From a virus (lineage: Duplodnaviria > Heunggongvirae > Uroviricota > Caudoviricetes), in the IMG/VR virus record IMGVR_UViG_2693429728_000012, positions 1 through 13,971 of that record: 13,971 nucleotides of DNA; one strand, written 5' to 3'. The notes beneath the pieces were generated by a model. That model saw only the letters and a list, made by a program, of their open reading frames with translations, searched no databases and was not told the DNA's origin. Each line of letters opens with the position of its first letter. The first letter of the stretch is position 1. The translations under genes were made by a program, and so were the position numbers. Positions 1 to 1,263 of the stretch are shown piece by piece.

Positions 1-699
1 GGGATGAAAAAAACAGCGCCTGACGGCGCTGTGTCTGGCATGCCTGCAATCCGGGAAACCGGACCAGGAAAAAACTTGCAGGCCATAACAGTATCTACAT
101 CTATCAAGTTCATCAATTATTATAAATAATGGAAGCTCTTTATCTATTCCATCTTTTCGCCCAATGAATTCAACCCAACGACTAATTCCTTTTCTTACTG
201 TCTCTATTCTCGTTGATTTTTCTGCGTGTATTTCTATTAGCTTAGATGATAAGTCTTTAGTTAGGTTAGAAAAGGAGTCAACCCCTGTGAACTTTTGTAT
301 TAATCCATCAATAATAACTGGTGCCGCTGTTTTTAGCAAAGGACCGACATTCTCAATTGTTGAATTGATTAAAGCAGTAAAGCTATCAGATTGACCAGAT
401 AATTGATCTTTAATTCCACTAAATACTGTGAGCAATGGGTCTTCAGTAAAATCTTCTTTCCAAGCATCAATGTATATTGTGGGATGGTAGTGGGAAATTG
501 TCTTGGCTAGGCGTTTAGTAAAATATGTTTTTCCAGCCCCCCATTCCGCATTAATGTTAACTACGAGATTGGATTTAGCACCGCGTGCAGCACAGATTTC
601 ATAAAGATATTTTGCGTACTTTTTTCTGTCCAATGTATCTGCAGGTAATTTTTCACCAAGAAATTCGTCATCTTGATCCCAATTCCACTCAATATCCAT
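1..699 (-). CDS. KAP-family P-loop NTPase, N-terminal part (partial or truncated); not in the supplied ORF track
   Basis: Manual minus-strand translation from ATG (revcomp of 697-699) gives MDIEWNWDQDDEFLGEKLPADTLDRKKYAKYLYEICAARGAKSNLVVNINAEWGAGKTYFTKRL...ELPLFIIIDELDRCR, with Walker A (WGAGKT) and a KAP-style Walker B (IIIDELDRC). The frame stays open to the window edge, but after DELDRCR (about position 95) the translation turns Cys/Arg/His/Trp-rich and non-protein-like. The start abuts the cI stop (TAAATG). Confidence 0.6.
   Translation of the reverse strand, partial: MDIEWNWDQDDEFLGEKLPADTLDRKKYAKYLYEICAARGAKSNLVVNINAEWGAGKTYFTKRLAKTISHYHPTIYIDAWKEDFTEDPLLTVFSGIKDQLSGQSDSFTALINSTIENVGPLLKTAAPVIIDGLIQKFTGVDSFSNLTKDLSSKLIEIHAEKSTRIETVRKGISRWVEFIGRKDGIDKELPLFIIIDELDRCRYCYGLQVFSWSGFPDCRHARHSAVRRCFFHP
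5..34 (-). terminator. Rho-independent terminator candidate for the leftward cI-NTPase transcript
   Basis: Plus strand has an A-run (5-11) then the inverted repeat acagcgcc-tgac-ggcgctgt; on the minus strand this is an 8-bp GC-rich stem followed by TTTTTTT. Confidence 0.45.
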
Positions 700-1263
700 T
701 TAAGCCTCACTGATTACGGTATGAACCTTAGCTATAGGTTTTATATCACTAATATCACATTCAAATGAAAAACCATCCCCAGATACCATTGCTCTTTTGA
801 CTGGTATCAAATTGATTTTTTTAATACTCAGTTTTCCTTCTATATCCACCAACCATTGACCATCAGAAATGGTAGTGTCTTCTCGGTCACAAATGTAAAC
901 ATGTTGGTTAATTTTTATCGCTAATGCAGATTTTATTTCATTGAGAAGAAAGACTGGATCAATCTTGTGCGTTCCAAGTGCAATAGCCTCTCCATTTTTT
1001 AGTTCGCGAGTTTCAACGTCTACCAAAGAGTTGACTGCTGTGGTTTTTAACTCACCTTTCCCTGATACCAGCCAATCAATTGAAGTACCAGTTTCTACAA
1101 CGCATTGAAGTACCCAATCTGCTGGAAAAATGTCACGCATGTAGCGGGTTGCCATTGTGCTCTTTGAAACCCCTAAGTGGTCGCAAAGGGCCTGACGAGT
1201 GGTGAAACCATACGCCTCAACCAAACGTTCAATCACTTTCTTTCCGCCGCTATTGAAATTCAA
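700..1263 (-). CDS. cI: Phage 186-type CI immunity repressor (HTH N-domain plus C-terminal oligomerisation domain)
   Basis: ORF 700..1350; HTH-like segment ERLVEAYGFTTRQALCDHLGVSKSTMATRY followed by WLVSGKGE and a C-terminal SDGQWLVDIEG block recalled as 186 CI-like. Start uncertain: TTG at 1263 has a GGAGGA Shine-Dalgarno; alternatives are GTG 1236 and GTG 1350 (no SD). Stop TAA at 700-702. Confidence 0.75.
   Translation of the reverse strand: MNFNSGGKKVIERLVEAYGFTTRQALCDHLGVSKSTMATRYMRDIFPADWVLQCVVETGTSIDWLVSGKGELKTTAVNSLVDVETRELKNGEAIALGTHKIDPVFLLNEIKSALAIKINQHVYICDREDTTISDGQWLVDIEGKLSIKKINLIPVKRAMVSGDGFSFECDISDIKPIAKVHTVISEA

Follow-up and report, generated by a model that had tools for sequence, protein, structure and literature searches.

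At the left edge of a 13,971-bp stretch of DNA that belongs to an Escherichia coli 186-like (P2-family) prophage, a minus-strand gene for a KAP-family P-loop NTPase directly follows the repressor gene cI, and its reading frame is open from the ATG at 699-697 through to position 1. Is this an intact gene that simply continues beyond the edge, in the place where the integrase gene (int) would be expected, and could it serve the lysogen as an exclusion gene, as an earlier note on this DNA had proposed? Note that the stretch (hereafter the window) is the entire draft contig CYFF01000044.1 of assembly GCA_001285365.1, so that this contig cannot be extended leftwards. We conclude with high confidence that the KAP gene occupies a slot between cI and int and is split there by the insertion sequence (IS) IS621. 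Because IS621 interrupts the gene after codon 202, the gene is a pseudogene in this genome, and an exclusion function cannot be claimed for this lysogen. The features on which the argument turns are as follows.

Positions 1-94, plus strand: right end of IS621 (IS110 family), non-coding; the contig ends within the IS.
Positions 13-32, minus strand: predicted terminator-like hairpin in the IS621 right end, with an 8-bp stem and T7 (consensus scan).
Positions 95-96, no strand: CT core dinucleotide, the recombination junction, common to the donor end ACAGTAT-CT and the target ATCGGGC-CT-AC.
Positions 95-699, minus strand: 5' fragment (codons 1-202 of 483) of the KAP-family P-loop NTPase gene; PDC-S20, phrog_8614; a pseudogene here.
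Positions 97-123, minus strand: Walker B strand with the motif IIIDELDRC of the family (residues 193-201); no variation from D196 to P203 among 38 sequences.
Positions 526-549, minus strand: Walker A motif AEWGAGKT, residues 51-58; 38 homologues all share W53, G54, G56 and K57.
Positions 697-708, minus strand: cI/KAP junction, consisting of GAGG (708-705), CT, the cI stop codon TAA (702-700) and the KAP ATG (699-697).
Positions 700-1350, minus strand: 186-type CI repressor gene (Pfam Phage_CI_repr, 8e-30; Phage_CI_C, 7e-24).

The prediction of a minus-strand P-loop NTPase with Walker A and Walker B motifs, AEWGAGKT and IIIDELDRC, was confirmed by profile searches. In particular, the fragment in the window scored 63.6 bits (2.4e-17) against the Pfam profile KAP_NTPase (PF07693), for which the curated gathering score that served as cut-off is 20 bits, and it matched the PADLOC candidate defence family PDC-S20 at 1e-39. 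The full-length protein of E. coli W scored 124.2 bits against PF07693, and the full-length allele matched the PDC-S20 model PDLC04959 at 4.2e-82 (residues 20-411, profile positions 18-413 of 464). The gene had been described as hidden, which it is not, as its exact 233-amino-acid (aa) translation is already in RefSeq as WP_261289617.1, 'KAP family NTPase, partial'.

To the left of position 97, the window is IS621. Positions 1-96 are identical to the IS621 right end of E. coli SE11 (96/96, 0 mismatches), and the stretch 1-94 elsewhere begins 12 nt after the transposase stop codon; it matches 12,225 places, spread over 1,679 genomes with a median of 8 in each, and all of these places adjoin a gene annotated as 'IS110-like element IS621 family transposase'. 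The transposase gene itself lies outside the window contig. When window positions 1-1400 were compared by megablast with 5,426 complete E. coli genomes, 11 genomes were identical over 95-1400 only, and positions 1-94 matched thousands of places; moreover, positions 95-1459 showed 0 mismatches to E. coli W. Since window positions 1-96 are the IS621 right end, just codons 1-202 (95-699) are native KAP sequence. At the protein level, identity with the native protein is confined to the first 202 aa; residues 203-233 (RYCYGLQVF…) come from reading the IS621 right end in reverse, where the native protein goes on RPDFSISLLEI…. The idea that an intact gene continues past the window edge and replaces the missing integrase drew on the frame being open to position 1 and on the lack of an integrase gene within the 13,971 bp. 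These two observations stand, but the last 31 codons of the frame are IS-encoded, and int comes right after the KAP gene in all intact relatives. The junction alignment, the identities to IS621 and E. coli W and the protein comparison together refute this idea, to which we assign practically no probability.

The junction in the window was aligned with E. coli W and with two copies of IS621. In the W allele, which is not interrupted, the sequence is AAATCGGGCCT up to the break and ACATC beyond it; in the window it is …ACAGTATCT up to the break and again ACATC beyond it. Exactly at the break (window positions 88-98; positions 5994-6004 of the E. coli W locus, L001), the W allele carries the sequence ATCGGGCCTAC, which fits ATC(A/G)GGCCTAC and is an exact match to the specificity of the IS621 target-binding loop in the bridge RNA (Durrant et al. 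2024, PMC11208160). The target is built from the codons TGT AGG CCC GAT (C201-R202-P203-D204), directly after Walker B, and among the homologues examined, the codon choices that make a perfect target occur only in the W-type allele. IS621 thus very probably entered the KAP gene by bridge-RNA-guided recombination at the 11-bp ATCGGGCCTAC, a target that happens to arise from the conserved C-R-P-D codons, and the gene was thereby split after codon 202, with its 3' half now on another contig.

If IS621 had inserted in this way, a reciprocal junction ought to exist. From the left end of the SE11 copy and the W gene we predicted a junction peptide of …DTACGLQAEKTGRFSLHWRDNT followed by RPDFSISLLEI…, and this was then found in WP_261289616.1, a 304-aa protein with 22 residues of the IS left end that is encoded on a 32,562-bp contig. 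The protein consists of the IS621 left end and KAP residues 202-483 (the left-end junction is known from the protein alone), and its accession and that of the window product, WP_261289617.1, are consecutive. On the basis of the consecutive accessions, the 32,562-bp contig is very probably from the same genome as the window. (For a 144-aa open reading frame (ORF) internal to the 3' fragment there is an accession in the ENA style, CTZ44328.1.) In all, this resembles a plain insertion of IS621 with both halves of the gene kept, and not a chimera or a deletion.

An assembly chimera at the contig end would fit with the contig ending in a repeat and with the junction being found in none of the 5,426 complete E. 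coli genomes. It would fit also with the result of searching 185,579 species-representative genomes for exact copies of the 37-nt IS621/KAP junction, which gave 0 matches and is uninformative, the source itself being a non-representative draft. However, IS621 and KAP sequence meet precisely at the CT core, within an 11-bp target that is perfect for IS621, and in the correct orientation, and the reciprocal left-end junction is present in an independent database protein with the 22 IS residues that were predicted. Because a random join would give neither a perfect target nor a reciprocal junction, we regard a chimera as highly improbable and retain an insertion of IS621 as the explanation.

The 325-aa read-through chimera that is predicted with the SE11 IS sequence was not in the protein collection. 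The other 'partial' KAP proteins of the cluster, of 157-330 aa, are native up to their ends, which were set by contig breaks, and none is an IS fusion; recurrence of the insertion is therefore not shown. Note that many draft E. coli assemblies break inside the AT-rich KAP gene, and that two partial products stop at residues 197 and 199, just ahead of the IS621 target, which could mean further IS621 insertions or merely low coverage.

What remains of the protein should be inactive, judging from conservation and from an AlphaFold2 (AF2) model of the KAP protein, whose mean confidence (pLDDT) is 83. In the model, core strands 222-228 and 257-260 fall past the break, and in the alignment 26 of the 56 invariant columns are located after residue 202, with residues 203-261 forming the most conserved block of the family; the truncated product should be non-functional because it lacks two core strands and these 26 positions. 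Between the Walker strands, residues 79-190 of the model form an insert of some 110 residues, which is helical and has a tip modelled at low confidence. KAP members are said to have a long insert between Walker A and Walker B, often with transmembrane helices (reportedly described by Aravind et al. in 2004). Transmembrane segments are absent from the KAP protein considered here, in which the highest 19-residue Kyte-Doolittle mean, 1.53, lies on a core strand; not every member of the family has such helices. One might still imagine that the 202-residue fragment with its IS-encoded tail keeps some activity, such as nucleotide binding or a dominant-negative or decoy effect, given that it retains Walker A and Walker B, that its start codon and Shine-Dalgarno sequence are intact so that it may be translated, and that its frame would reach 325 aa with the SE11 IS sequence. 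However, it is without strands 222-228 and 257-260 and the conserved block 203-261, a terminator-like hairpin lies inside the chimeric ORF, and C-terminal deletion abolished the defence conferred by the Enterococcus faecalis KAP protein EF_KAP (PMC13552941). Residual activity of the fragment thus seems very doubtful, and we continue to treat the truncated product as most probably inert.

The intact locus shows what the insertion has broken. The order in E. coli W is rcdA, int (350 aa), KAP (483 aa, WP_000350737.1), cI, an apl-like gene and cII, and the order cI-KAP(483)-int-attachment site (att) was found in 10 of 10 non-redundant places with a gene for this same cI. The order cI-KAP-int-att held in all intact relatives examined. 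The suggestion that the NTPase gene sits where int is expected was therefore correct insofar as the window is without an integrase gene, and incorrect insofar as int, being next after KAP, is displaced by one gene and not replaced. The W-type KAP allele is rare, occurring in 11 of the 5,426 complete E. coli genomes, in all of which it is intact. (Two genomes labelled 'E. coli DH5alpha', NZ_CP026085.1 and NZ_CM135829.1, carry the W-type prophage with an intact KAP gene, which is unexpected in a K-12 derivative and suggests mislabelled strains.) The same order was found with more distant alleles in E. coli JNE151685 (KAP 70% identical at the nucleotide level), in Leclercia (64% aa identity) and in Klebsiella (36% aa identity); TAAATG is kept in the first two, and in Klebsiella a 25-nt gap separates the genes and KAP has its own Shine-Dalgarno sequence and a TTG start codon.

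Other prophages carry other genes at this position. In E. coli LD91-1, a gene for a 443-aa PDC-S20 protein (2.6e-173) lies in the slot after a 31-nt gap, and where other prophages carry a 443-aa or 504-aa cargo gene in this slot, it too belongs to PDC-S20, whereas strain 214-4 has merely a 63-aa ORF between cI and int. The attachment site at rcdA is common to prophages with differing slot cargo. Because its contents vary (483-aa KAP, 443-aa KAP, 63-aa ORF) between conserved flanks, the cI-int interval of E. coli 186-like prophages is, on comparison of these loci, a cargo slot. In Vibrio phage K139, glo is located between cI and int. A cI-int hotspot has already been described in K139-like P2 relatives of the Vibrionaceae (PMC9122126), and 8% of P2 defence systems sit between the integrase and primase genes (PMC13586616).

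Whichever cargo is present, a leader of about 85 nt ahead of int is conserved. This leader is not part of the window; it is found upstream of int, at positions 5073-5135 of L001 and also in the loci L014, L018, L020, L021 and L022, and it comprises a promoter-like TTGACC-18-TAAATT and then a hairpin, AGCCCTCA-gaca-TGAGGGCT, with U6 abutting the int ATG. The Shine-Dalgarno sequence of int, GAGGG, is within the 3' arm of this hairpin, and the predicted RNA fold has an energy of -20.6 kcal/mol (z = -4.5). In other lineages the same leader hairpin is formed by a different sequence, ATGCTCTC-tact-GGAGGGCAT. The hairpin could terminate the transcript of cI and cargo, gate the translation of int, or do both. 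On the far side of int, the Klebsiella prophage L018 carries a SocA_Panacea-domain gene and a 249-aa ORF between int and the attachment site (7802-9024), a cargo that fits the minor 'integrase to att' hotspot of P2 (PMC13586616).

How might the KAP gene be expressed? As had been proposed, its ATG abuts the cI stop codon on the same strand, with zero intergenic bases (TAAATG). A Shine-Dalgarno sequence lies inside the 3' end of cI. The layout GAGG-(C/T/G)(T/A)-TAA-ATG recurs in E. coli JNE151685 and Leclercia. The 5' end of cI itself probably needs correction. The annotation pipeline PGAP starts the gene at GTG 1350 (216 aa), and an alternative start at TTG 1263, with GGAGGA 4 nt upstream, would give a product of 187 aa, the length annotated for cI in the relatives from Leclercia and from JNE151685. 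A consensus scan places a strong promoter-like site, TTGACA…TAAAGT (1291-1319, plus strand), inside the GTG extension. The true start is thus probably TTG 1263, which would make the annotated cI 29 codons too long.

In the interrupted locus, the predicted hairpin in IS621 (32-13) faces transcription arriving from cI and the KAP fragment. Transcripts from cI would enter the IS621 right end antisense, and the predicted terminator could cut read-through towards int. Any polar effect of IS621 on int is uncertain, because the int leader has its own promoter-like TTGACC-18-TAAATT.

What the intact gene does is a separate question, and here we lean, with modest confidence, towards an anti-phage role. 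Defence appears the most likely function because of membership of PDC-S20, the hotspot position and the analogy with PifA (encoded by the F plasmid), QatA, RdrA, Tmn and EF_KAP. Support comes also from the low GC content of the gene (34%, compared to 47% in the window), its dispensability, weak homology to PifA and QatA and a fold resembling that of RdrA. KAP NTPases with uncharacterised C-terminal regions gave E. faecalis phage resistance, for which Walker B and the C-terminal region were alike required (PMC13552941). From the place of its gene directly after cI, the intact KAP protein would most likely be made from the lysogenic cI transcript, possibly by coupled translation; it might work as an ATP-dependent switch or as an oligomeric ATPase acting with its C-terminal half, and would most likely defend the lysogen against other phages.

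Several points weigh against this reading of the locus. PDC-S20 is a predicted candidate in PADLOC, whose authors call the PDC families '145 untested phage defence candidates', and no mention of PDC-S20 was found in the papers searched. Co-transcription with cI and translational coupling are plausible from the layout of the genes, and the gap in Klebsiella, where KAP has its own Shine-Dalgarno sequence and TTG start, indicates that tight coupling to cI is not universal. That the two halves come from the same assembly, and that int lies on the 32.5-kb contig, is likewise taken from consecutive accessions. The family, moreover, extends well beyond this setting. A word-indexed search returned more than 1,400 KAP homologues across Enterobacterales and Aeromonas, and relatives of the gene are present in at least 596 species-representative genomes. 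A context survey of the best 80 species-representative loci, mostly from marine Gammaproteobacteria and at 30-40% identity, found a cI…int context (cII/cI…int) at only about 3 of the 80 (Enterobacter, Aeromonas, Vibrio), and when 150 genes directly next to the distant homologues were scanned with PADLOC, the matches were scattered, at most 4 members per family with no control set for comparison, a pattern that does not establish a defence-island signal. The Ewingella homologue is beside a small helix-turn-helix gene, with phage genes not nearby. Since so few of these loci have the cI…int context and the Ewingella copy is outside phage genes, the family, by its genomic distribution, is mobile and not prophage-specific. 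In a phage collection, a DNA search matched only the IS621 part of the window, and a protein search gave only 5 distant matches (28-33% identity); no deposited phage genome there carries the KAP gene.

We also considered that the intact protein is not a defence protein at all and instead serves the prophage (for example in maintaining lysogeny, in control of int or excision, or in an addiction-type function) or is a selfish passenger. The tight joining of KAP to cI in three lineages would suit such a role, as would the lack of a known defence phenotype for PDC-S20, an NCBIfam match to QatA that is weak and sub-threshold, and the scattered, uncontrolled result of the neighbour scan. By contrast, the cargo is dispensable and variable in syntenic prophages (as with the 63-aa ORF of 214-4), the int leader is conserved regardless of the cargo, and homologues exist outside prophages. 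In addition, the prophage tolerates loss of the gene to the IS and over 13 kb looks otherwise complete, and the related KAP NTPases PifA, QatA, RdrA and EF_KAP act in phage exclusion. A prophage-serving or selfish role is accordingly unlikely in our estimation, and defence of the lysogen remains the function that we prefer for the intact allele.

A broader proposal would be that the PDC-S20 KAP proteins of the slot are lysogen-expressed defence proteins with a dose governed by translational coupling, in a rexAB-like manner within the P2 family, and that IS621 can recurrently switch the allele off. The idea of recurrent switching comes from the perfect bridge-RNA target being the codons of the most conserved motif, C-R-P-D. 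In this proposal IS621 may, in addition, separate int from the cI transcript, which would lock the prophage in place. We offer this combined proposal as speculation, and think it improbable as a whole.

The window carries one further gene of this kind.

Positions 7935-9827, plus strand: second KAP-type NTPase, 630 aa (PADLOC PDC-S49, 1e-160; phrog_4740).

This gene occupies the gpA-portal (old/tin) hotspot, which has been described for P2-like phages (PMC9122126, PMC13586616) and whose content varies among the 10 places with the same cI (GmrSD, DndB, DUF4145 and others). The earlier note was right that there is a second, full-length KAP locus here, but similarity between the two genes is limited to the Walker A region and their families differ. 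We therefore rejected the possibility that they are paralogues or a two-part system, given Walker A similarity only, different PADLOC and PHROG families and different hotspots. PDC-S49 is also a predicted defence candidate, and the gene is followed by a 223-aa ORF (10351-11022) with no Pfam or PADLOC match. Elsewhere in the window, an 82-aa ORF (2563-2811, minus strand) between fil and the DUF5347 gene has no family match; it was found in the relatives L004 and L006 and not in L005 and L012, and it may be a small moron. No Rfam families were found in the window. At the right end of the contig (13891-13971), there is an abrupt break 81 nt past the terminase start, inside the P2-like late genes, and the sequence aligns to other prophages up to the final base. 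A repeat probably caused this break, which would be a hint of a second P2-like prophage, or of a satellite-related repeat, in the genome.

The annotated gene, the candidate family and the type of prophage slot are all already known, and the copy here is IS-disrupted, so the case matters little beyond correct annotation. It does illustrate that a repeat element may have interrupted a gene whose ORF seems to run past the end of a draft contig, and it adds one natural case in which IS621 used a perfect bridge-RNA target in coding sequence and not in a repetitive extragenic palindromic (REP) element. PDC-S20 KAP NTPases are also documented here as repeated occupants of the slot between cI and int in 186-like prophages of E. 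coli. For a test of PDC-S20, the allele to take would be the unbroken one of E. coli W (WP_000350737.1) in its native context with cI, and the IS-split allele provides a natural null.

Compared to known systems, the insertion resembles REP-borne IS621 copies (PMC11208160) in its donor end ACAGTAT-CT, CT core, target ATCGGGCCTAC and orientation. It differs in that the target is coding sequence in an AT-rich prophage gene and not a REP element, and in being the perfect match with G at position 4, ATCGGGCCTAC, where the usual natural target is ATCAGGCCTAC. With the PADLOC family PDC-S20 (Payne et al. 2024, bioRxiv 10.1101/2024.01.29.577857), the gene shares the single-gene format and the lack of a conserved partner; the copy here is split by IS621, and its membership is of a candidate family and not of a proven system. 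The resemblance to established KAP-type defence proteins is more distant. The KAP protein scores 36 bits against the QatA equivalog model of NCBIfam, for which the cut-off is 600, and is just 12-16% identical to RdrA of RADAR. Unlike RADAR and Qat, it is encoded without RdrB, QatBCD or any other partner, and unlike Tmn and EF_KAP, it has no transmembrane helices. No Rex-family match was among the PADLOC or Pfam hits of the KAP protein, which has no sequence relationship to RexA or RexB. In lambda, rexA and rexB are lysogen-expressed exclusion genes downstream of cI. The KAP gene is one gene and not two, and it encodes a soluble NTPase and not a membrane channel pair. It is nonetheless, like rexA-rexB, a non-essential gene that directly follows the repressor gene on the same strand and is presumably expressed in the lysogen. 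The rexAB-like arrangement that had been proposed is, then, a fair analogy of layout.

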